A stretch of DNA of 64,000 nucleotides from Naegleria gruberi (lineage: Eukaryota): NCBI GenBank assembly GCA_000004985.1, contig GG738858.1. The stretch is one strand, 5' to 3'. The translations under genes were made by a program, and so were the position numbers. The notes beneath the pieces are model-generated. The model saw nothing but the letters and a program-made list of their open reading frames with translations, made no database searches and was not told where the DNA came from. Shown here in pieces: positions 22,728 through 55,649 of this stretch. The first letter of the stretch is position 1. The number at the start of each line of letters is the position of its first letter.

Positions 22728-23027
22728 TGTGTTGTTTCGTATGGTTTTGTTTGGGTTTTTTCAAAGTGGAGTAATGATATTAAAGGGTCAAAAAACCAAA
22801 TTCTTTTTTAATAAGAATGCAATAAACTAAAGCTTTCGTCTGGAGAATTTAAACAATTTTCACAGATTTTGAGAATTGTAAGGAGGCCGCTTTTGTAATT
22901 CCTCCAGATTTTTAGATGGATTTTTGTTGAGTGGAAATATTGAGTTGTTACTAGAGGCATGAAAGTTCTACAAATGGAGTTCCATGATTATTAAATAAGT
23001 TGTAGAAACTGTATTCGAAATTCTAAG

Positions 23028-24497
23028 TTTGGACAAAAAGTGTTTCGTGCAAGTTACATGGTCATAAATTAAACCTAACTGGGATTCATACGGATTCCAT
23101 GGTATTGAAATTTCCTTAATGGGAAGTCTACAGTTTGTTTGTCAACTATGAGTACGGACTGCATGACAAGGTCAACTTACAATTGGTTCCTCAACACTTT
23201 TAAACAAATTCCATTTTATTAATCACAAAGCTTACAATCTAACATGTTTCAGTGCACAAAATAATCTCTGTCAGAAAAATAAGCTTACTGGTACAGTTAT
23301 ATCTGCATACCAAATCAATTAATTTGGACGGTTGATATAGAACACAATTATGAGAGAACCAATAGAAAGTATGAATATTTGCAAGACCAGATACACAAAT
23401 CCATTTAGAATTTTAAAAAGATATTTTCTGTTTATCCGACTACACACCAATAAATACGAAAATAATGAGCTTTATTCTACACGCGCAATATATGATGTAA
23501 ACAACTTTGACATCATACCCATTCCACTTGAACTGTTTCAAAGAAATTTCATGAAATGCATACAGTCTTTTAAGAATTCAAGTTTGACGCCTCCTGTCCC
23601 TTTACCAATTTTAACCTGTAATTTGCACAAACCTAAATGGTACTTTTTGAGATAATTAAAAATGTGTCCTTGGATACGGTTAGAAAATAGGAAACCCATG
23701 CCATTTCATTTTCATGAATACTATAAAGGTTTTTTATAATGGAGTTTTAAAAGTAATTCAAGTTTGGACAAAAAGTGTTTCGTGTAAGTTACATGATCAT
23801 AAATTAAACCTAACTGGGATTCACACGGATTCCATGGTATTGAAATTTCCTTACTGGGAAGTCTACTGTTTGTTTGTCAACTGAGTACGGACTGCATGAC
23901 AAGGTCAACTTACAATTGGTTCCTCAACAATTTTAAACAAATTCCATTTTATTAATCACATAGCTTACAATCTAACATGTTTCAGTGCACAAAATAATCT
24001 CTGTCAGAAAAAAAAGCTTACTGGTACAGTTATATCTGCATACCAAATCAATTAATTTGGACGGTTGATATAGAACACAATTATGAGAGAACCAATAGAA
24101 AGTATGAATATTTGCAAGACCAGATACACAAATCCATTTAGAATTTTAAAAAGATATTTTCTGTTTATCCGACTACACACCAATAAATACGAAAATAATG
24201 AGCTTTATTCTACACGTGCCATATATGATGTAAACAACTTTGACATCATACCCATTCCACTTGAACTGTTTCAAAGAAATTTCATGAAATGCATACAGTC
24301 TTTTAAGAATTCAAGTTTGACGCCTCCTGTCCCTTTACCAATTTTAACCTGTAATTTGCACAAACCTAAATGGTACTTTTTGAGATAATTAAAAATGTGT
24401 CCTTGGATACGGTTAGAAAATAGGAAACCCATGCCATTTCATTTTCATGAATACTATAAAGGTTTTTTATAATGGAGTTTTAAAAGTAATTCAAGTT
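23028..24497. repeat. Two tandem, about 97% identical copies of a 733-bp unit (copy 1 about 23028-23760, copy 2 about 23761-24497), each containing an identical 101-aa ORF (23350-23655 and 24083-24388)
   Basis: Direct read-through identity of the two units. Differences are limited to a few substitutions and small indels. The period comes from the ORF offset (24083-23350=733). Confidence 0.9.
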
Positions 24498-24539
24498 TAC
24501 AACCGGATGACATCCAGGTTACAATAAAATTAAAAAAAA

Positions 24540-25377: not shown

Positions 25378-25495
25378 TGGCTACGGCCATATCACGATGA
25401 AAGCACCTCATCCCGTCCGATTTGAGAAGTTAAGCATCGTCGAGCCACATCAGTACTGAGGTTGGAGACAACTTGGGAACCTGTGGTGCTGTAGT
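25378..25495 (+). rRNA. 5S ribosomal RNA gene, copy 1, followed by a T5 run
   Basis: GGCTACGGCCATATCACGATGAAAGCACCTCATCCCGTCCGATTTGAGAAGTTAAGC..GGGAACCTGTGGTGCTGTAGTC matches conserved 5S blocks (GCCATA.CAC, ATCCCGTCCGAT.TG, GAAGTTAAGC, GGGAA.ACC.GGTGCTGTAG). T-run Pol III terminator directly 3'. Confidence 0.9.
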
Positions 25496-25528
25496 CTTTT
25501 TACTTCATAGTCAATAGTCAACCAATAA

Positions 25529-34769: not shown

Positions 34770-36563
34770 TTATCTATGCATCAGATTGAGTGTTTCTTCT
34801 ACAATTAGATTTGGACTGGTAAGAGCCATATCAAAATCTGCATCAATTATCTTCCATGCCATTTTGGTGGAATTGTAGTAGGTAGCTAAATCTTGGTGCA
34901 TTGATAAAAAGGCGTTTGCACGTTCTTGTTGATAAATAAGAAAATCATTGCATAGAGCTGTTCCAAAAGAAAGGTAATTGTCCTCGCAAGATCCATAAAG
35001 TAATTTCTTTGATGTGAGTATACTGACTGGAATAATTGTTGAATTTGAAGAATGGAATTGCTGTCTCTTTGCTCTAATATTTATAATATTGCCTGTCGTA
35101 TTTTTCATGTCATCAAGCTCACCCCAAACAGCATTATTGAACTTGTTGATATTTGTTGTATGTTGGTTGTATTTCAGTAAAAGTTGAACAGCTGTTGAAT
35201 TTGGGAAAGATGAAAAATACGTCTTCCAGCCATTCAAGTAATATCGTTCATGGATTGTTCCTAAGGTGGAAGGGAGTTTTTGATAGAAATAATTTGAGAA
35301 ATATCTAGTAAATCCAATAGGTGTTACGAATCTAATGGTATTGGCCATATAGGCTTTCTCTTCTAACATATTGCTTATTTGAGTATCAGTTAAATTATAC
35401 ACACTACCAAGATGATATGTGTCTTGCTTTTCATGAGATGGATGCAACAAGATAACACCCCTCAAGAGTTTTCTGTGATATTCCATGACTGTTCTGGCTG
35501 TGAATGAGGCACTTGAATGTGAAATCAAAATGAATGGTGTTTTGAAAGATGCCTCTTTCACAAGTGCAATCATTTCATTCATTGTTGTATTGCTCAAATC
35601 TCTTGGAAATGGTCCCGAATCGCTGAATCCATATCCTGCTCTCTCAATCACACAAGCTCTCATTCCCTTCTTTGCCAACAGAGTGATTAAACTCTTCATA
35701 TAAGCATATGGTGATGCAACTCCAATATCTGAATCGAGAAGCACTGCATCTTCACTTTCAGAATCTCCTTCACAATACATGTGCATATTCAGTGTTTGAG
35801 CACTCGAGGGTTTAATGCTGTACATGGTTCCAGGGACTTTATATTCATCCTGTGTTATCGAAACTGATTGGACTGTAAACATGATGAATAAGGCACAAAC
35901 TAAAGCCATAAATGTATAGACTAGAAGCTTGATGACTGTTGTAACTCGACAACAAATTCTGGTTCTGAAAAAGCTTTCTTCTCCATACCATTTTTCTTCC
36001 TTCAAATCGAATATTATTGTATTTGATTTTCTAAATTTCTTGAATTGATGATATGCAATTACAAGATATGAAATTGGAGAGATGACAAAAAACAGGCAAA
36101 GCCAACCAGAAAGTCTCTCTCTATTCTCACTATAAAGTCCATAACAAACCCAATTAATCAAACTAGAGATGAAAATAAGTACTCCCCAAAATATTCTCGC
36201 AAAGAGAGCCATGCTATATCCGTCAATATTAATTTGACGAGTTAAATTATCCTTAATAAGTCCTTTCTTTTCAATAAAAGATACAATCCTCTTATACCAT
36301 CTCAATAAAAATAAAGGTCCGAATAGATCAAAAATGAATGTTAATGAAAAAACCATTTGAAATGCACTTGTCCACACAACAGTAGTAGGAGAACCTGCAG
36401 TAAAATATCCTATTTGATCAGAATTACTATTATCCATTGAAATTCCAAACACTACTATGGAGGATAATGCACAAAATAATATTGTTAGAATTGCAACTTT
36501 GTAAATTGCTCCAATTATTCCCTTCTTGGTCTTTTTAGTCTTCTTCTTTGTTGGCTTTTCCAA
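34770..36563 (-). CDS. Membrane-anchored alpha/beta-hydrolase-fold protein, paralog A (N-terminal multi-TM region plus AB-hydrolase-1 domain), intronless
   Basis: ERAGYGFSDSG (the DxRGhGxS-type block) and nucleophile elbow ISHSSAS. Five N-terminal TM helices. Confidence 0.65.
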   Translation of the reverse strand: MEKPTKKKTKKTKKGIIGAIYKVAILTILFCALSSIVVFGISMDNSNSDQIGYFTAGSPTTVVWTSAFQMVFSLTFIFDLFGPLFLLRWYKRIVSFIEKKGLIKDNLTRQINIDGYSMALFARIFWGVLIFISSLINWVCYGLYSENRERLSGWLCLFFVISPISYLVIAYHQFKKFRKSNTIIFDLKEEKWYGEESFFRTRICCRVTTVIKLLVYTFMALVCALFIMFTVQSVSITQDEYKVPGTMYSIKPSSAQTLNMHMYCEGDSESEDAVLLDSDIGVASPYAYMKSLITLLAKKGMRACVIERAGYGFSDSGPFPRDLSNTTMNEMIALVKEASFKTPFILISHSSASFTARTVMEYHRKLLRGVILLHPSHEKQDTYHLGSVYNLTDTQISNMLEEKAYMANTIRFVTPIGFTRYFSNYFYQKLPSTLGTIHERYYLNGWKTYFSSFPNSTAVQLLLKYNQHTTNINKFNNAVWGELDDMKNTTGNIINIRAKRQQFHSSNSTIIPVSILTSKKLLYGSCEDNYLSFGTALCNDFLIYQQERANAFLSMHQDLATYYNSTKMAWKIIDADFDMALTSPNLIVEETLNLMHR

Positions 36564-36620
36564 ATCAAAGAAAGTATATCTATTAATATGAAAATGTTAT
36601 AAAATCATGCAAAATAAAAC

Positions 36621-37346
36621 CTACACAACTGGTTCTTCATCTGCTTGTTCCGTAGTATTTTGAAAAACAGAGAAGAGGGTTTTCTTTTTTGGTTTTTTTA
36701 CAATGGTACGAGTTGAACATCCATCCAAGTCAATGCTGTTAGTACTGTGAAAGCCATGATCAAAGGGGAATTTATGATGTTTTTGCATTTCATTTCTTCC
36801 TTCTCCATGTTCGACAATATCCGATAGTGGTGAATGTGTTTCACCTCCTATTTTAACTCTCAACAACTCTTTTGCTGTAATTATTGCATTATCCTCTAAA
36901 GGATGAGAATTATTTGGCACACGTACGACAGTGTCGCTCAATCCAAGAGAAATTGGTGAAAGGCCTTCAGGTAAGGATGTATTGGATGTATTCTTTTGAT
37001 TATTATTTAAATTGCATGTAATGTGCGTATCATGACACCCCTTCTCAGATGTTGGAGTAAAAGAAACACCATCACTCCTATTGCAAGACTCACTATCACC
37101 ACTTGGTGTAGAATTACTACTATTGCTATTACTATTACTACTGTGTGTATTGATAATAATTTGTGGAGGAAGTGTGGTTTCCATCATGATCATAGAGTCA
37201 TGATGTTGAGTGATATTGGTTATTCCTTCATCATGATGATGATGCTGAGGTAACGGAGAGGAGGAATGCCTTCTAGTCTGTTGTTGTCCTTCTGATGATG
37301 AAGATGAAGAAGAGGAAGGTGTTGAAATTGAATTGAACATTTTCAA
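36621..37346 (-). CDS. Hypothetical Ser/His-rich low-complexity protein (241 aa)
   Basis: Single ORF with poly-Ser and SNS repeats. Weak coding evidence beyond ORF length. Confidence 0.35.
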   Translation of the reverse strand: MKMFNSISTPSSSSSSSSEGQQQTRRHSSSPLPQHHHHDEGITNITQHHDSMIMMETTLPPQIIINTHSSNSNSNSSNSTPSGDSESCNRSDGVSFTPTSEKGCHDTHITCNLNNNQKNTSNTSLPEGLSPISLGLSDTVVRVPNNSHPLEDNAIITAKELLRVKIGGETHSPLSDIVEHGEGRNEMQKHHKFPFDHGFHSTNSIDLDGCSTRTIVKKPKKKTLFSVFQNTTEQADEEPVV

Positions 37347-37701
37347 AGATGTAGTAGTAGACTTGTTGAATACAACAACACACTAATAATTCAGCTATAA
37401 TTTTATGCTTTAATGATGGAAATGCTATTCTTGATGATGCTTGCCAAACAATAATGGCTCATATCATCTATGATATTGGTGAATGGCTGGTTTTTTTGAG
37501 TGGATTTATTTGGTGGTGAGAGGAAAACGAACTGTGATCAGCCACAAACTGATGCGGTTAAGGCATTGAAGAATTGTGAACGAAAAATTTCATTTCAAAG
37601 CCTTCTTGCAAGCTGTGTTGTGCTGAGAACGAAAAATCAACAACAAAAAATATAAGAAGAGGAAACGCCCCTTCAATATCTATGACTGCCCTTTGAGTTT
37701 T

Positions 37702-39570
37702 TCAAAAATCTTGAAGAAAAGGAAGTATTAGTTCGGGATGATGTAAAGCAATATCATAATCCGAGGGGATGTGTTTCCAGGAGACGGAGTAGAGCTTGGG
37801 TTGATTTTTGTAAAAATTGAAGAGATCTTGATGGAGGAGTTGGATGATGAAAGATCTTTGGAATTGTTTTTGGAGGAAATCTTGGCAAATTGATGAACCT
37901 TCTGGAAAGAAATTTTGGCTACAATTTCCATTGAGAAGATAGCTTGATGTGAGGATGATTAGAGGGAGTGGTTTTGTTGAATTGGACATTGTTTGTGGAT
38001 TTTCTCTATTATGGATGATCTGCTTATTATTGAATGGGATGGATTTCAACTCACTCCAAACAGTGTTCGTAAATTTGTTGCTATTGAGAACACTATCGTA
38101 AATTTTCAATAATGTTGAATTAGTGAAAGATGGATAGAAGTACTTTTTCACACCATTCATATAATATCTATCATACCAATTATCCTTTTCATTTTCCTCC
38201 AATAATCCAAAAACTCGAAATATTCCAATAGGAACCAGCATTCTAATGGTATTCACATGGCTTACTTCAGTATTGTAGTGTTCCTCTACTGTTTCATTCT
38301 TGACAAATGTTCTCAGTAATGATTCTTCTTGCTTTTCATGAGATGGATGCAACAAGATAACACCCCTCAAGAGTTTTCTGTGATATTCCATGACTGTTCT
38401 GGCTGTGAATGAGGCACTTGAATGTGAAATCAAAATGAATGGTGTTTTGAAAGATGCCTCTTTCACAAGTGCAATCATTTCATTCATTGTTGTATTGCTC
38501 AAATCTCTTGGAAATGGTCCCGAATCGCTGAATCCATATCCTGCTCTCTCAATCACACAAGCTCTCATTCCCTTCTTTGCCAACAGAGTGATTAAACTCT
38601 TCATATAAGCATATGGTGATGCAACTCCAATATCTGAATCGAGAAGCACTGCATCTTCACTTTCAGAATCTCCCTCACAATATAGATGAAGGTTAATTGT
38701 CTGTGTGTCTTTGGAATATAAGGGCACCTGAACTGTTTGACCTGGCATGCTTTGAATTCCTGCCAAGATAGATACAGCCTGAATAACACAACCTATTAGT
38801 ACCACAATTAGTAGAGTTGTAAATATTAACACTGAAATATGGGCTGCTTTCATGAAGTATTTCATTATGGTTGATCTTTTAGAATACAAAAACAGATAGA
38901 TTTCATGGCAATTTTGTGTCTTTTTGTGCTTATGCTTTCCAAATTTTTCCTCATAGTATTCCTTGACATACCTTCCTTTAACAAACTGGTAATATTTTGT
39001 TAACAAATCAAAGATTACATTACTTACTTGATATACAATCACTAGAATATATGCAATCATTGGAATTAATCCAGAGAATGCAAACCAACCAGTCAATCTA
39101 TCTCTACTCTCCTTTACAGTATATGAAATCCAAATAATGGAAAGCAATAGCATTGTTACAATGGTAATTAATAATTTGATAATTAACATCAGAATAGAAG
39201 TATCCCATGATAGATACATGTAATTTGTATAATTAGTAACAAAAATCTTTTTCCTTTTAATACTAAATCCCATCATACAGCCCATAATTGGTATGAAATA
39301 TGAATCAATAATTAATAATCCAATGTAAAATAGCATTACAATAGAAATCCAAAATATTGTAACTGGTGATCCACTTGTATAAAATCCACTATTCGACACT
39401 ACATTAGCAGCACTAACAGACATTGTAACTATATATGAAATCAAAAAGAATATCAGTGTTATAGTGCTAATTTTGTACAGTGAATGAAAAATCTTCTCCA
39501 CATGTTTGAGTTCACTCGGCTTGGAAACAATTTTTGGACTTGTACTAATTGGAGAACCTTGCATTTCCAT
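37702..39570 (-). CDS. Membrane-anchored alpha/beta-hydrolase-fold protein, paralog B (tandem duplicate of 34770-36563)
   Basis: Same architecture as paralog A. A central 117-aa block is identical to paralog A. The flanking regions are divergent. Confidence 0.65.
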   Translation of the reverse strand: MEMQGSPISTSPKIVSKPSELKHVEKIFHSLYKISTITLIFFLISYIVTMSVSAANVVSNSGFYTSGSPVTIFWISIVMLFYIGLLIIDSYFIPIMGCMMGFSIKRKKIFVTNYTNYMYLSWDTSILMLIIKLLITIVTMLLLSIIWISYTVKESRDRLTGWFAFSGLIPMIAYILVIVYQVSNVIFDLLTKYYQFVKGRYVKEYYEEKFGKHKHKKTQNCHEIYLFLYSKRSTIMKYFMKAAHISVLIFTTLLIVVLIGCVIQAVSILAGIQSMPGQTVQVPLYSKDTQTINLHLYCEGDSESEDAVLLDSDIGVASPYAYMKSLITLLAKKGMRACVIERAGYGFSDSGPFPRDLSNTTMNEMIALVKEASFKTPFILISHSSASFTARTVMEYHRKLLRGVILLHPSHEKQEESLLRTFVKNETVEEHYNTEVSHVNTIRMLVPIGIFRVFGLLEENEKDNWYDRYYMNGVKKYFYPSFTNSTLLKIYDSVLNSNKFTNTVWSELKSIPFNNKQIIHNRENPQTMSNSTKPLPLIILTSSYLLNGNCSQNFFPEGSSICQDFLQKQFQRSFIIQLLHQDLFNFYKNQPKLYSVSWKHIPSDYDIALHHPELILPFLQDF

Positions 39571-40003
39571 TTAGTTATTATTCTCAAAGAACATACTATT
39601 TTCAAATTGATCAGTTTCCTTGACTACCTTTGGATTTTTAAGTCTAGGAATATTCCACAGACTTTTCCACCTCCTCAATCCTTTATTATTTGGTTTTACT
39701 GCATTTTCCTCTTTATTCGGAGTGATTTCTGTCTGCACACTTGGTGTTCCGAGAGTTGCATCCGATGAACACTCTTCTTGATTCTTTAAAGTATCAACAC
39801 TTCCAATCATTCTATTTTTTGTCGATTTGGCTTATAAGTTTAATCGACAAATTTGGAAATTCTCTTTTTGGAAATGCAAGAGAACATTGTTAGTAATTCT
39901 AAAAGGAACTTAACTTTAATGTAACTAATTCTATTTGAACAACAGTATCCAACCATATTTAAGGATAGCAATTTTTAGATTCTCTGGATAACAACAAAAC
40001 AAA

Positions 40004-47559: not shown

Positions 47560-47677
47560 GGCTACGGCCATATCACGATGAATGCACCTCATCCCGTCCG
47601 ATTTGAGAAGTTAAGCATCGTCGAGCCACATCAGTACTGAGGTTGGAGACAACTTGGGAACCTGTGGTGCTGTAGTC
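47560..47677 (+). rRNA. 5S ribosomal RNA gene, copy 2 (one substitution relative to copy 1: GAATGC vs GAAAGC), followed by T5
   Basis: 118-nt match to copy 1. Preceded by about 75 bp that is shared with copy 3. Confidence 0.9.
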
Positions 47678-47790
47678 TTTTTATCACACATTAATTTCGA
47701 TAAATAGATGATTCACAGCACCAAAAAAAAGGAAATTCAACTTTTTCAACACTCATTGGAATTGCTGATTTACAGAGCTCAACAGCCAAT

Positions 47791-48927
47791 TTAGAAACAC
47801 TTTCTATGAACAAAACCTGGACCAGCCTCCTCATATTCCTCTTTCGATATCCACATCTGCTGAAAGGTTGCAAGACTCGCGAGGATACTACCTCCAATCC
47901 AAACTGAATACTTTCTTTCAGGTGGGGCGACAACCTTTATCTTCATTGAGGCTGGTGCCAAAGCAGTCAATTCCTTGGTCATTCTTTCAGCAATACCTTC
48001 GAACATGGTATTACCACCTGACAAGACAACATTTCCATACAATTCCTTTCTAATGTCAATGTCACATTTACCAATTGAGTTGAATGCCATTTCATGAACA
48101 CCAGCAGCCTCCATTTTTTCAACCAAATTAGGTTGGAATAAAACTTCTGGACATCTGAATCGTTCGTTACCAATTGTTATCACATTACCATCTGGTAATT
48201 CGTATAACTTTTCCACGGAGGATGATTCAGCAGCAACTTTCATTTCAGCTTCGAAATCTAAAGCAATATAACAGAGCTTTTCCTTAATACCTCTGACAAC
48301 TTCTCTTTCAGCAGTAGTATTGAATGAGTAACCTCTTTCCATCAAAATATTCATCAAACAATCAGTCAAGTCACGACCAGCCAAATCCAATCTCAAAATG
48401 GCATGTGGCAAGGCATAACCTTCATAAATTGGAACAGTGTGTGAAACACCATCACCAGAATCCAAAACTATACCAGTACTTCTACCAGAAGCATACAATG
48501 ACAAGACAGCTTGAATGGAAACATACATGGCCGGAACTGAGAAGGTTTCAAACATGATTTGACTCATCTTTTCTCTATTTGGCTTTGGATTAAAAGGAGC
48601 TTCAGTCAACAAGACTGGATGTTCCTCAGGAGCAACACATAATTCATTGTAGAAGGTGTGATGCCAGATCTTTTCCATATCATCCCAATTAGTAACAATA
48701 CCGTGCTCAATTGGATACCTTAAAGTCAAGACACCACACTTGTATTGAGCTTCATCACCAACATAGGCATCCTTACCAAACATTCCAATCATGATTGACT
48801 TTTGCTTTGGTCTAGCAACAATTGAGGGAAAGACAGCTCTTGGAGCATCATCACCAGCAAAACCAGCTTTACACATACCAGAACCGTTGTCAACAACGAG
48901 AGTTTGAACGTCTTCATAGAAAGACAT
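47791..48927 (-). CDS. Actin (about 80% identical to conventional actin), intronless. The likely start is the Met of [17 protein letters not shown] at 48927; the ORF extends 21 codons further upstream to 48990.
   Basis: [103 protein letters not shown], terminal VHRKCF. A-rich context AAAAAAAACAAATCAAATG precedes the internal Met. Confidence 0.9.
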
Positions 48928-49219
48928 TTGATTTGTTTTTTTTAAAGTTTGTTCATCTGGACAACATTTGACAATTTGAAGTTGACTCAAGTCTTCATAT
49001 CAGAGCTATCAGTCATATCCGTCAAGTAAATGAAAAAAGAACTTTTGAATTTTTGCTGGTTCCTAAATTTAGAAAATATTGAAATGATATGGAGTTGGAT
49101 TGTTCTTTGTTCGATAGTAATTCAAAATAATTCAAAGATTGTTGTGAACATCCCTTGTTGAAGATCAATAGGTAAGAATGCTTACCATTCCCCAAATGAT
49201 TTCATCTATATTTCAGTTT

Positions 49220-50405: not shown

Positions 50406-50523
50406 GGCTACGGCCATATCACGATGAAAGCACCTCATCCCGTCCGATTTGAGAAGTTAAGCATCGTCGAGCCACATCAGTACTGAGGTTGGAGACAACT
50501 TGGGAACCTGTGGTGCTGTAGTC
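50406..50523 (+). rRNA. 5S ribosomal RNA gene, copy 3 (identical to copy 1), followed by T5
   Basis: 118/118 identity with 25378-25495. Shares about 75 bp of upstream sequence with copy 2. Confidence 0.9.
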
Positions 50524-50704
50524 TTTTTAATTAAGTTTTAAGACACATGAATCTTTAAAGTTGTTCATGTAGTCTTTTTGAGGAGAATTTTACTCCCTGT
50601 TCAAAGTATTAACATTTGATATTTGGGCATTTAATTAAAGTAGTACCACAACATCTTTCTCGGCCAATTGGCTTTGATCGAGTGAAGTTTCTGTTCTTTT
50701 CAGT

Positions 50705-51094
50705 TTAATAGCTGAAAGCAGCCCAAGGGTTGCCTCCTCTCAATCTCAATACTAAATGCACAGTTGAGTCCTTTTGAAGATTGTAATCATTAATGGTTCT
50801 GCCATCTTCCAATTGTTTTCCTGCATAAATCAATCGTTGTTGATCTGAAGGAATACCTTCTTTATCAAATATCTTTTGTTTCATATTCTCAACAGTATCA
50901 CTCGATTCCATTTCAATTGTAATTGTCTTTCCAGTTAAGGTTTTTACTTGTTTTCCAGCAAAGATGAGTCTTTGTTGATCTGGTGAAATTCCTTCCTTTT
51001 CTTGAACTTTTCTTTTCACATTTTCAATTGAATCATTAGATTCAACTTCCAAAGTGATTGTTCTACCAATGAGTGTCTTGACGAATAATTGCAT
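50705..51094 (-). pseudogene. Degenerate ubiquitin-like gene: Ub(1-49) fused in frame to Ub(5-76) plus an 8-aa tail, with multiple substitutions relative to the near-invariant ubiquitin sequence
   Basis: [49 protein letters not shown] | [80 protein letters not shown]. Canonical ubiquitin differs at 15 or more positions. Confidence 0.6.
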
Positions 51095-51096
51095 TA

Positions 51097-52477
51097 TGTT
51101 TGTTGTTTTTTTTTCTTATTGTTTTTCTTTGAATTCAAAGCATTTCTTTGCATTTTATTCTTGTAAACCTCCATTCCAATAAGATTTGGTTGAAATAATA
51201 TCTCAGTAGTTTTGAATCTTTCATTCCCAAGTGAAATTACATTTCCATCTGGCAATTCTAGACCGTGGGAGGTGAGAAGGATTGACAAATATTTTAAAAA
51301 AAAATTAAGAAGTCACTCAAAAAACAATTTGTTAAAGTCGAGCCGAAGGTTTATTGGACCAAGAGTGAGACAGTGTGTTCAAAGTATCAATTACCACTTG
51401 TTCTTCTAGAAACAAGTACTTCTGGGTTCTTGTACATGAACCTTCGCTTTAATGTACCAACAATTTCAAGTAAATGGGCAGGCACTTATCTAGATGATGT
51501 TTTGGTGAGGTGAATGTAGTAATGGCTGGTGAGGAAGGAAGCAAAGGGAGAACTCTCCTCATGGTGGCTTCTCAAGGTAGCATGCTGAAGGTGGGAATAC
51601 CAACCAATATACCTATTTAGCAGGGTGATGATGAAATCATGATGAGTAATTGTTGTTTGTTGTTTTTTTTTGTTGAATATTTAACGGTCAGAACAGACAA
51701 CTTTCAGCGGTTATTGGTTGGCGCGAAATTACCGTGATGTAACATTTTTTAGCTCACCTCCCTCGGTCTAGGCAATTCATATAAACTTTCTTTCGCTGTT
51801 TCTGCCAAAAAATTACTGGCAACATAACCAGTTTTTTCCTTCATATCCCTGACTAGTTCAGTTTCACCCATCGTGCTGAAATTATATCCTCGTTCCATTA
51901 ACATTTTCTTCAAATAATCTGTCAGGTCTTTGCCTCCTAATTCCAATCTTTTGGTGGCATGTGACAGGGCATATCCTTCATAAACAGGTACTGAATTAGT
52001 GACGCCATCACCTGATTCCAATACTACACCTGTCATTCTACCATTTGCAAATATTGACATGGCACATTGATTTGCCAAACACAAACCTCTCACCTTAAAA
52101 CTTTCAAACATGATTTGTGTCATTTTCACTTTCACATCCTTTGAATTTAGTGGCATTTCCATCAGTAATACTTCATGCTCCTCAGGAGCAACTCTTAACT
52201 CATTGTAAAATGTATGATGCCATATCTTTTCCATATGATACCAATCTGAAATTAATCCACGATCAATTGGATATTTGTAAACATTAATACCCCTCCTACA
52301 CAATGCATAATCTCCAACGTAAGTTTCGATAGAGCCCATTGAAAGGAGGAAGGGTGCTACTTTTCGATGTGAAGTTACTGTGGGAAAGACTGCTCGTGGA
52401 GCATAATCACCAGAAAAACCAGCTTTCATTTGAGAGGAACCATTATCAATGATGAGTGGTGGATTTTCATCAGTCAT
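51097..52477 (-). pseudogene. Truncated divergent actin paralog interrupted by a 512-bp MITE-like insertion. The coding parts are 51771-52477 and 51097-51258; the stop TAA overlaps the ATG of the downstream ubiquitin-like ORF as TAATG.
   Basis: [76 protein letters not shown] | insertion | [28 protein letters not shown], then a basic tail. Lacks about 100 C-terminal actin residues. Confidence 0.7.
51259..51770. mobile_element. Non-autonomous DNA transposon (MITE-like), 512 bp, with 18-bp terminal inverted repeats (TAGACCGTGGGAGGTGAG .. CTCACCTCCCTCGGTCTA, 17/18 match) and an exact 8-bp target site duplication GGCAATTC at 51251-51258 and 51771-51778
   Basis: TIR and TSD read directly from the sequence. 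Removing the element and one TSD copy restores the in-frame actin sequence ..[18 protein letters not shown]... No ORF of significance inside. Confidence 0.8.
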
Positions 52478-54293: not shown

Positions 54294-55649
54294 TTGTTAT
54301 CAATCAATATGAAGGAAATAATAACAATTCATGTCGGAGGGGCCGGATGTCAAATAGGCGATCAGTTGTGGGAGTTATATTGTAAGGAACACGGTATACA
54401 ACGTGCTGCAGATCATCATACCAATAATACAACCTCCATGATGGAATCATCAGCTGCCTTTTCATCAGCAGAGAGTTTGTTCTATGAAACGAGTCATACA
54501 GAAAAGCAACAATATGTTCCATTGGCTATCTTTTTCGATAACGACTCATCAAGAGTGCACGAATCGAGGAAGAGATTTGGTAACTTAATGTCCTCAGACA
54601 ATATGATTGGAGGTAAGGAAGATGCTGCCAATAATTTTGTGAGAGGATGCTACACGATTGGAAAGGAGAATATGGATACAGTCTTGGAGAGGATTAGAAT
54701 ATTGAGTGAGAAGTGTGATAGTTTGCAGGGAATTAATGTTGTGAACTCGTTGGGAGGAGGAACAGGCTCTGGATCAGGAACATTATTGCTTGATAGAATG
54801 AGTATAGACTTTGCAAAGGTTCCAATTCATTTGAATACTGTTGCACCATCTCCAAAATTGTATGATACAGTTGTGGAACCATATAATTTTTGTTGGGCTA
54901 TGGAACCAATGTGTGAAAAGGGATGCACAGCAACTTTTTATGATAATGAGGCCTTGTACAATGTTTGTGGAAATCATTTGGGAATTAATGATCCGAAATT
55001 AGCTGATATTAATCAAATTATTGCACACCACATTTCCACAAGCTTTTCCAGTTGTAGAATTGGATCTAATTGTGCAATGCCTGTTTCATTTGGAGATGTA
55101 AATCAGACACTTGTTCCAATTCCAAACTTTGAATTACTTACCCCTTCATTTGTACCATTTGGTTCTGCTCAGAACGAGTTGAGTATGGCAGAGAGGGGCA
55201 AACTTGCATTTAGTCCTTCCAACACTTTGATTTCTTACAACATCTTGGAAGGAAAAATGCTGAGCTCACTGTTAAGTTATAGAGGAAATGTAACTATGGG
55301 AGATAACTTTGAATGTTTGAGTGCTGTCAAAAAGATGGAGGGTATTTCTATGGGCCCTTCTTGGATTCCAAATACTTTCAGTTGCCACATCTCCAAAGCT
55401 CCAACAACTCTTTTGGATGATTCAGTTCTTGGGGTTGTGCCAAGTGAAAAGATGCTTGCAGTAACAACCAACACAACTGCCATCACCAAAAAATTGAATC
55501 AAATTATGGTAAACTTTGATAAAATGTATGAAAAGAGAGCATTTGTTCATTGGTATGTTGGAGAGGGCATAGAAGATGAATATTTTAGATATGGAAGATC
55601 TATACTCGAAGAAAAGGTTGCCACCTATGGAGAGTTGATTTCACAATAA
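54294..55649 (+). CDS. Highly divergent alpha-tubulin-like protein, intronless (451 aa)
   Basis: MKEIITIHVGGAGCQIGDQLWELYCKEHGIQ. GKEDAANNFVRGCYTIGKE. GTP-binding box SLGGGTGSGSG. TTNTTAI. KRAFVHWYVGEGIEDEYF. Long stretches between these blocks are unlike canonical alpha-tubulin. Confidence 0.75.
   Translation: MLSINMKEIITIHVGGAGCQIGDQLWELYCKEHGIQRAADHHTNNTTSMMESSAAFSSAESLFYETSHTEKQQYVPLAIFFDNDSSRVHESRKRFGNLMSSDNMIGGKEDAANNFVRGCYTIGKENMDTVLERIRILSEKCDSLQGINVVNSLGGGTGSGSGTLLLDRMSIDFAKVPIHLNTVAPSPKLYDTVVEPYNFCWAMEPMCEKGCTATFYDNEALYNVCGNHLGINDPKLADINQIIAHHISTSFSSCRIGSNCAMPVSFGDVNQTLVPIPNFELLTPSFVPFGSAQNELSMAERGKLAFSPSNTLISYNILEGKMLSSLLSYRGNVTMGDNFECLSAVKKMEGISMGPSWIPNTFSCHISKAPTTLLDDSVLGVVPSEKMLAVTTNTTAITKKLNQIMVNFDKMYEKRAFVHWYVGEGIEDEYFRYGRSILEEKVATYGELISQ

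Follow-up and report, generated by a model that had tools for sequence, protein, structure and literature searches.

Two hydrolase-like genes share a block of identical sequence

The window, 64,000 nt of Naegleria gruberi contig GG738858.1, carries two neighbouring genes, g1 and g2, and a block of a few hundred nucleotides that lies in frame within both of these same-strand ORFs (Table 1). Both ORFs are on the minus strand with a gap of 1138 nt, in agreement with an earlier note, made from the letters alone, that had described a same-strand pair about 1.1 kb apart.

Table 1. Features of the g1/g2 locus, in window positions.
Feature	Position	Strand	Remarks
g1, main coding body	34770..36579	-	Predicted multi-pass membrane domain, then alpha/beta-hydrolase-fold domain
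g1, identity island	35422..35768	-	Codons 266-381 of the 597-codon ORF; exact run and blastn
g1, island extension	9 nt more, to 35777	-	One synonymous mismatch; total 356 nt
Antisense 72-aa ORF	35485..35703	+	Inside the tract; identical twin at 38390-38608
45-nt GT-AG intron (GTAGGT...AATAG), predicted	36580..36624	-	Read from sequence
241-aa ORF, low-complexity	36625..37346	-	ORF list; no Pfam match
g2, 622-aa paralog	37702..39570	-	Architecture as g1; flanks strongly diverged from g1
g2, identity island	38327..38673	-	Codons 300-415; reaches 38682 with one mismatch
79-aa ORF	39571..39810	-	Directly upstream of g2, same frame, only TAA between

The ORF listed for g1 (34770-36563, 597 codons) starts at a TTG; its frame is open from 36596, and the N-terminal motif FFDLEKP, common to g1, P0001 (another organism's homologue) and P0002, sits upstream of that start. 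The g1 exon would begin at 36579, after a 45-nt intron that would connect the 241-aa ORF to g1, and the same junction (...EEPVV/YTFFDLEKP) is used in the public model NAEGRDRAFT_65586 (P0275, clustered under P0273). The 241-aa ORF is probably exon 1, an N-terminal extension of g1; between its N terminus and the N. lovaniensis homologue's there is only weak similarity (E about 0.5), and the N. lovaniensis and N. fowleri homologues have N-terminal extensions of roughly 250-300 aa. The 79-aa ORF, which may be either an upstream ORF or a spliced 5' exon of g2, is spliced onto g2 in the public model, and its protein is identical in the second strain described below. That model (2302 aa) fuses g1, g2 and an unrelated receptor-like GPS/7TM gene, a mis-annotation that hides both hydrolase-like genes from protein databases.

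The membrane-anchored alpha/beta-hydrolase architecture proposed in the earlier note is borne out by a Pfam match, a structure model and a hydropathy scan. The two matches to Pfam PF00561 (Abhydrolase_1) scored 31.3 and 32.9 bits, above the curated cut-off of 25.8, and covered residues 284-378 of g1, inside the tract, and residues 318-474 of g2, in the tract and beyond. An AlphaFold2 model of moderate confidence (mean pLDDT 66.6, hydrolase strands mostly above 70) has the order of strands and helices, with a lid insertion, that is expected for an alpha/beta hydrolase. All top PDB matches in Foldseek were alpha/beta hydrolases (probability 1.00, E about 1e-7 to 1e-6), and among solved structures epoxide hydrolases, haloalkane dehalogenases and related esterases come nearest in fold. 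Unlike these solved structures, with which it shares only 10-15% sequence identity, the g1/g2 domain is fused behind membrane helices, about five of which precede it according to the structure model and the hydropathy scan. Mapped onto the model, the tract would extend from beta3 to beta6, including the nucleophile elbow, and would end where the lid begins.

A nucleophile Ser, S350 of the 597-codon g1 ORF, is present in a small-x-Ser-x-small elbow (SHSSA). When the g1/g2 clade is aligned with canonical relatives, the GHSFGG proteins P0129-P0133, a His aligns with their Asp, and Phe or Tyr aligns with their catalytic His (SSHNI), at a position outside the tract. The block had previously been called the catalytic core; this holds for the oxyanion-hole region and the nucleophile elbow, which lie in the tract, but not for the aligned canonical His. 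Because that position is Phe or Tyr, the label catalytic is unproven and the activity of the domain in g1 and g2 is putative. The conserved residues H349, H374 and H377 could stand in for the canonical His.

Identity ends sharply at both edges of the block

The two copies are identical at 347 of 347 nucleotides, with an offset of 2905, so that the tract of about 350 bp and 100% identity noticed at the outset is real. Blastn stretches it to 356 nt at 99.7%, the sole mismatch being a synonymous GAA/GAG difference in the Glu of YCEG, and detected no third copy within the window. The g1 copy encodes EGDSESEDAV...HPSHEKQ. The earlier note had the length right (35427-35775 against 38337-38685) and placed the second copy 10-12 nt too high, which implied an offset of 2910. 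The sharp boundary that it had reported was recovered when the alignment was run: both edges were mapped, and synonymous differences are back within a few codons on either side. Identity in the tract is far above chance. Among residues identical in both proteins, the same codon is used at 110 of 111 core positions, against 46.7 +/- 4.9 expected from the codon usage of the window (log10 P = -45.7). The identical antisense 72-aa ORFs, cited in the earlier note as confirmation, do exist; they are identical because the underlying DNA is, and as a mere by-product of it they are not evidence of a gene.

Outside the tract, amino acid identity between g1 and g2 is 27% towards the N terminus and 35% towards the C terminus, which upholds the strong divergence of both termini described before. 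Ungapped nucleotide identity falls to background there, and codon-aligned identity is about 0.4-0.6. Synonymous codon matches in the flanks number 75 against 68.8 +/- 5.8 expected, showing no excess, as at saturated sites. Because synonymous matching is at chance level and protein identity is this low, the duplication must be old, and we conclude from the sequences that g1 and g2 are ancient tandem paralogs rather than merely diverged ones. Neighbour-joining trees with bootstrap show a conflict between core and flank phylogenies: the core grouped g1 with g2 in 200 of 200 replicates, whereas the flanks grouped g1 with P0001 in 187 of 200 and with g2 in none of the 200.

Within the family, the tract falls on the block that is conserved best, where species share 55-65% identity as opposed to 22-45% in the flanks. 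The cores of homologous genes in other organisms are only 66% identical to it in nucleotides, and protein-level selection therefore cannot explain identity of 100%. Core identity to outgroups was 55-65% for all pairs and indicated no donor for the tract. The homologue loci of P0001 and N. lovaniensis P0004 hold one copy each and are without synteny to the window. A metagenome scan with the family alignment recovered only distant relatives, most likely bacterial, which apart from two very short matches have 27-41% core identity. An explanation by exon boundaries was dropped, as the intron of the N. lovaniensis gene does not lie near the tract.

A second strain carries the same mosaic

A second strain was available as two contigs, L034 and L035, of an independent short-read metagenome assembly (ERZ929261, raw reads ERR1078381), 1-2% diverged from the window. 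L035 (99.25% match) covers the whole g2 tract with g2-specific sequence on both sides, and L034 (98.0% match) holds the 3' junction of g1 and 68 nt of the tract, where it ends. The mosaic and the same 3' boundary are thus present in the second strain. A contig between the two tracts of this strain was sought through a 239-aa ORF and was not found.

One informative site falls in the part of the g1 tract covered in the second strain, 68 nt as opposed to the other 279 nt. At positions 35454 and 38359, the window has T in both genes and the second strain has A in both. The variant lies 33 nt from copy-specific flank, a distance that a single 127-mer of the k127 contigs spans, which makes its assignment to each copy secure. 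Parallel mutation is an unlikely source of this pattern, its probability being roughly 0.003 by our own estimate. Because the variant is common to both paralogs within each strain and differs between strains, the pattern indicates concerted evolution. Together with the shared mosaic, it suggests that the island was already there before the strain split and underwent conversion once more after it.

Three of the 347 tract sites vary between strains, each of them synonymously, compared with 8 of 1310 and 6 of 649 sites in the flanks; at 38467 and 38524, the second strain's g2 has C. This match in rate suggests that no extra constraint acts on the tract DNA itself. Across g2, there are 9 synonymous and 2 nonsynonymous changes, which indicates purifying selection. 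At the between-strain rate, zero differences in 347 nt has a probability of about 0.03-0.12; taken alone, the identity of the two copies is not clearly younger than the strain split.

Probable recurrent gene conversion and its alternatives

We consider it likely that the tract is kept identical by recurrent interlocus gene conversion between g1 and g2. The earlier note had proposed recent ectopic gene conversion and had suggested allelic data as a check. Conversion is supported by the boundaries, the saturated flanks, the tree conflict and the second strain, but a single recent event is not: the process appears to be recurrent and older than the strain split.

Homologous-recombination and mismatch-repair genes are reported in Naegleria by a genus-wide gene survey (PMC9928731). 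In the mechanism that we propose, a break or gap in one copy would be repaired by homologous recombination with the other copy as template, in a non-reciprocal transfer between the cores of direct-orientation paralogs whose homologous positions lie 2905 bp apart. Nearly all of g1 and g2 would have diverged past the reach of homologous recombination, except the block of 347-356 nt. Heteroduplex and copying would be confined to this block, and its edges would stay sharp and stable, because the flanks offer no homology into which heteroduplex could spread. The island would have lasted since the flanks escaped, rather than arising in a later rare event and then being maintained. GC3 in the tract, at 0.32 compared with 0.28 (p = 0.43), shows no increase and gives no sign of GC-biased conversion, a process that to our knowledge is not established for Naegleria.

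A bolder reading, which we regard as possible but somewhat doubtful, is that the block is a conversion island of long standing that perpetuates itself. Its two copies would have remained identical from a duplication that, with dS of 1.5 or more in the flanks and about 0.03 between strains, is older than the strain split by a factor of at least about 50. Selection might also help to set its edges, by acting against conversion of the membrane and lid domains, which have diverged in function. If this reading is true, few stable islands of concerted evolution described so far would be smaller or older, the block would provide a natural gauge of how little homology suffices for recombination in a heterolobosean, and hybrid genes joining g2 to g1 in frame, as well as deletions or duplications of 2.9 kb, would be predicted in populations.

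We weighed four other origins for the tract. The strongest of them, although unlikely, is a single patch replacement between ancient, diverged paralogs with no ongoing conversion, through recombination of diverged sequences or template switching at a few bases of microhomology; identity would then reflect the youth of the event. Sharp edges without a gradient of divergence just outside them, which a slowly eroding island might show, count in favour of such a replacement, as does the missing GC3 signature of long-term conversion, and 0 of 347 differences fits a very young event. Yet an island and 3' boundary held in common with a strain 1-2% diverged cannot be very young, and the T/T versus A/A site requires further conversion after the island formed. 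Moreover, if the cores had earlier diverged as far as those of different species (66%), almost no homology would have remained to start recombination. We consider it very improbable that the genes arose by a simple recent tandem duplication and that all but the core then diverged very fast. Such a history suits two adjacent genes in the same orientation, one of which, g2, lacks a clear orthologue in a set of 1.84 billion representative proteins, and it was the reading that uniformly high identity across the genes would have favoured; instead, the flanks are saturated at synonymous sites, those of g1 group with P0001 and not with g2, and complete synonymous identity of the core would need conversion in any case.

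We give almost no credence to either of the two remaining origins. Selection on the DNA itself, through an antisense gene, an RNA or a regulatory element, could hold the tracts identical and would make something of the 72-aa antisense ORFs present in both copies, but these follow automatically from identical DNA, homologous cores in other organisms have only 66% nucleotide identity, and the tract gains synonymous changes between strains as fast as its flanks do. An assembly or polishing artefact, whether through collapse or chimerism of a repeat or because two similar cores had been falsely homogenised, is largely refuted, and nothing was found in its favour. The independent metagenome contigs reproduce both the g2 tract between g2-specific flanks and the junction of g1 flank and tract, and a deposited N. 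gruberi protein model derived from the 782-kb contig of the window holds two copies of the tract peptide. The N. gruberi reference assembly reportedly rests on Sanger reads that exceed the tract in length.

Relation to known cases of conversion

Our literature search found nothing on the g1/g2 locus or on project PRJEB11402. Interlocus gene conversion itself is a well-known, textbook process, and the present case leaves the concept unchanged. Examples include mammalian HSP70 genes (PMC5865164), Caenorhabditis paralogs (PMC3966223), GOT1 in Tigriopus (PMC3728101) and the flagellar alpha-tubulin family of N. gruberi (PMC2115128). As in such cases, the g1/g2 tract is homogenised at synonymous sites too, has sharp boundaries, yields trees that conflict with those of its flanks, and carries between-strain variants shared by the paralogs within a strain; its length, about 350 nt, is also usual for such tracts. 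Textbook conversion pairs are mostly at least 80-90% identical overall, whereas the flanks of g1 and g2 are saturated, with 27-35% amino acid identity, so that only a few hundred bases remain, as an isolated island, in paralogs otherwise unable to recombine.

How duplicated genes escape from gene conversion was reportedly modelled by Walsh in 1987 and by Teshima and Innan in 2004. In escape models, a part that has diverged past the homology threshold escapes for good, and slowly diverging segments can stay trapped. Trapping of the best-conserved block of g1 and g2 resembles this behaviour, although the fit is qualitative only, the comparison being with models and not with a sequence family.

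The recombination biology of N. gruberi is almost unstudied, and the locus offers an unusually clean natural case, an isolated block of about 350 nt with a cross-strain sign of continuing conversion. The tract would set a lower bound on the homology sufficient for ectopic recombination in Naegleria, and the two repeats are predicted to give rise to a hybrid gene and to copy-number variants by rearrangement. Trees or dates drawn from the conserved hydrolase domain would wrongly give a very recent duplication.

An identical tract within two diverged hydrolase-like paralogs

A repeat scan of the window joined g1 and g2, tandem paralogs encoding membrane and alpha/beta-hydrolase-like proteins, by a direct repeat. 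The two copies are offset by 2905 nt and agree exactly over 347 nt, and blastn extends this tract to 356 nt at 99.7% identity; blastn of the 64-kb window revealed no third copy. The sole mismatch within the 356 nt, a synonymous GAA/GAG difference, affects the Glu codon of the YCEG motif and, read in coding orientation, sits 9 nt in from the 5' edge. An earlier note had the length of the tract (about 350 nt) and its peptide right but placed the second copy 10-12 nt too high. It also correctly described the gene ends as diverged: outside the tract, amino-acid identity between g1 and g2 falls to 27% N-terminally and 35% C-terminally, with codon-aligned nucleotide identity of about 0.4-0.6. Both edges are sharp, because different codons are used at four of the seven conserved residues of QT.N.H.YCE directly upstream, and the genes are unrelated from the first codon downstream.

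Coordinates of features in the window
Feature	Position	Strand	Remark
g1	34770-36563	minus	ORF, 597 codons as listed
g2	37702-39570	minus	ORF, 622 codons
Exact identity run	35422-35768 (g1); 38327-38673 (g2)		347 nt
blastn extension of tract	35422-35777 (g1); 38327-38682 (g2)		356 nt
Site variable between strains	35454 (g1); 38359 (g2)		T/T in window, A/A in second strain
Match to contig L034	35489 to 28104		98.0%
Match to contig L035	42182 to 37914		99.25%
Fused public model P0275	31215-39810	minus	2302 aa
Predicted GT-AG intron	36624 to 36580		45 nt
79-aa ORF	39571-39810		in frame with g2
Possible GTATGT...AG intron	39596 to 39558		39 nt
Actin paralogs	47791-48990; ~51834-52426	minus	~3.5 kb apart
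5S rRNA genes, three dispersed	25379-25497; 47560-47678; 50406-50524 (+)		105-106 bits
U2 snRNA gene	50651-50773	+
Tandem direct repeat	23019-24498		~740 nt, 98.3% identity
Identical 101-aa ORFs in tandem repeat	23350-23655; 24083-24388
Divergent alpha-tubulin ORF	54294-55649	+

A recently overwritten core in probably old genes

For aligned residues identical in g1 and g2 we scored how often both genes use the same codon, taking the codon usage of 24 long ORFs in the window as the basis for the expected number. Of 149 such residues in the flanks, 75 share a codon (expected 68.8 +/- 5.8), with saturated synonymous sites; of 111 in the core, 110 do (expected 46.7 +/- 4.9), the log10 probability of all codons matching by chance being -45.7. 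The tract had no excess of GC3 (0.32 vs 0.28, p = 0.43), and beyond its edges divergence formed no gradient; this lends no support to very long-term conversion yet is compatible with it.

When 1.84 billion representative proteins were searched exhaustively, nine family members of full or nearly full length emerged, none exceeding 44% identity to g2. Neighbour-joining on the flanks grouped g1 with P0001, a member found in two assemblies (one an ENA metagenome, one from Logan), in 187 of 200 bootstraps and with g2 in 0 of 200; on the core it joined g1 to g2 in all 200. Nucleotide identity of the core to the homologous genes in sequences L001, L002 and L003 (N. lovaniensis) is just 66%. This conflict between trees and the low core identity imply that either the g1/g2 duplication is old or g2 evolves very fast, and that the core was recently overwritten. 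Old paralogs appear the better account, because synonymous sites in the flanks are saturated. Two actin paralogs in the window provide a useful contrast to the hydrolase pair, showing 67.7% identity over 600 nt and no conversion tract.

A second strain carries the same mosaic

Searching with a neighbouring gene led to an ENA metagenome protein of 98% identity and thereby to assembly ERZ929261, in which contigs L034 (7369 bp) and L035 (4272 bp) represent a strain 1-2% diverged from the window. L035 contains the whole g2 tract with g2-specific sequence on either side, and L034 contains the g1-specific C-terminal flank and 68 nt of tract. Because these contigs reproduce the tract edges on both sides in g2 and on the C-terminal side in g1, the mosaic is not an artefact of one assembly. 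L034 begins 68 nt into the tract, where a repeat-induced break at k=127 would give about 126 nt, and unlike the g1 tract in L034, the g2 tract passes uninterrupted through L035. The early end of L034 could reflect low coverage or tract differences between g1 and g2 in the second strain.

Between strains, 6 of 649 nt differ in the C-terminal coding part of g1 (all synonymous), 8 of 1310 in the g2 flanks (6 synonymous, 2 nonsynonymous) and 3 of 347 in the g2 tract (all synonymous). Purifying selection acts on both genes, and from strain to strain the tract changes at an ordinary rate. At the one variable site comparable in both genes, each strain has its own nucleotide in both copies. With copy-specific flank just 33 nt away, each variant shares a single 127-mer with that flank in the k127 contigs, which makes it safe to assign the variant to its copy. 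Since the 3' boundary of the tract is also common to both strains, the island predates the strain split and, on the evidence of this one site, at least one further conversion has occurred since. We estimate the probability of the alternative, parallel mutation, at about 0.003.

Probable recurrent conversion and its alternatives

The best reading of these results is recurrent interlocus gene conversion between g1 and g2. Homologous recombination between the direct tandem paralogs would have converted them repeatedly, but only within a homologous island of some 350 nt, the flanks having escaped. The coincidence of this island with the slowest-evolving part of the protein agrees with models of escape from conversion. 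Recombination and mismatch-repair genes are reported in Naegleria (PMC9928731), and conversion has long been under discussion for its alpha-tubulin family (PMC2115128). Comparison of core identities gave no signal of donor or direction. Sharp edges, saturated flanks, tree conflict and the second-strain mosaic all bear out the earlier note's proposal of gene conversion; its word "recent" suits the overwriting of the core but not the island, which is older than the strain split and was converted again afterwards.

A single, one-off replacement of the core is weakened by the presence of the island in both strains and of a strain-specific variant in both paralogs. Simple recent duplication, which would leave uniformly high identity along both genes, is excluded by the saturated flanks, and selection at the nucleotide level to keep the tracts identical is excluded by the low interspecies identity of the core and the normal substitution rate of the tract between strains. 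An assembly artefact such as a collapsed repeat is excluded in practice, the mosaic being present in independent contigs. The phenomenon itself is well known; this case adds modestly to it through its extremely diverged flanks, its evidence from two strains and the faulty annotation that it exposed.

The tract encodes a possibly remodelled hydrolase core

Both proteins score above the curated cut-off for Pfam Abhydrolase_1, with a match that lies inside the tract in g1 and begins in the tract and runs past it in g2. An AlphaFold2 model of g1 from a 7-sequence alignment (mean pLDDT 66.6) has about five long membrane helices, backed by a hydropathy scan, followed by an alpha/beta-hydrolase domain. 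Foldseek matched this model to epoxide hydrolases, haloalkane dehalogenases and esterases (probability 1.00, identity just 10-15%). In the model, the tract (g1 residues 266-381) runs from just past beta2 through beta3, helix A, beta4, helix B, beta5, the nucleophile elbow, helix C and beta6, ending at the start of the lid helices (380-498). It is the best-conserved block of the family, with 55-65% interspecies identity vs 22-45% in the flanks.

In more distant relatives (proteins P0129-P0133) the elbow reads GHSFGG, as is canonical, beta6 is followed by an Asp, and a C-terminal SSHNI motif contains a His. In the Naegleria-type clade, to which g1 and g2 belong, the elbow is SHSSAS and a His (LLHPSHE) occupies the aligned Asp position (both in g1 residues 345-378), while Phe or Tyr occupies the aligned catalytic His position (g1 ~575-582); protein P0003 has Ala in place of the nucleophile. 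Judged from these residues, proteins of this clade may be remodelled or inactive hydrolases. The tract was earlier called a catalytic core, which fits its oxyanion-hole region and nucleophile elbow, but the canonical elbow, Asp and His positions are all altered in the clade.

A fused gene model conceals both genes

Protein searches, including that of 1.84 billion representative proteins, found no separate N. gruberi hydrolase protein, because the public model NAEGRDRAFT_65586 / XP_002679403.1 (P0275) fuses both genes. It joins a 79-aa ORF upstream of g2, part of g2, a 241-aa low-complexity ORF between g2 and g1, g1 itself and, downstream, an unrelated 1056-aa gene with a GPS motif; the tract peptide is present twice. 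Other homologues occur on their own, as proteins of 540-950 aa, so the fusion almost certainly arose as an artefact of gene prediction. The TTG listed as the g1 start lies downstream of a conserved FFDLEKP motif, which suggests that the 241-aa ORF is probably the first exon of g1. A 45-nt intron predicted independently of P0275 agrees with the junction ...EEPVV/YTFFDLEKP in that model. Just a TAA codon separates the 79-aa ORF from the g2 ATG (39570), and a possible 39-nt intron would join the two in phase; the 79-aa protein is unchanged in the second strain.

Other features of the window

The 5S rRNA copies explain a dispersed repeat of 140-190 nt (~97% identity), and about 60 nt upstream of 5S are also common to two copies. 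A tandem direct repeat contains two identical ORFs. The alpha-tubulin ORF matches N. gruberi XP_002679287.1, encoded on a 782,252-bp contig, at 100% identity, which identifies the window as N. gruberi DNA; this tubulin is highly divergent, with just 35-40% identity to conventional alpha-tubulins.
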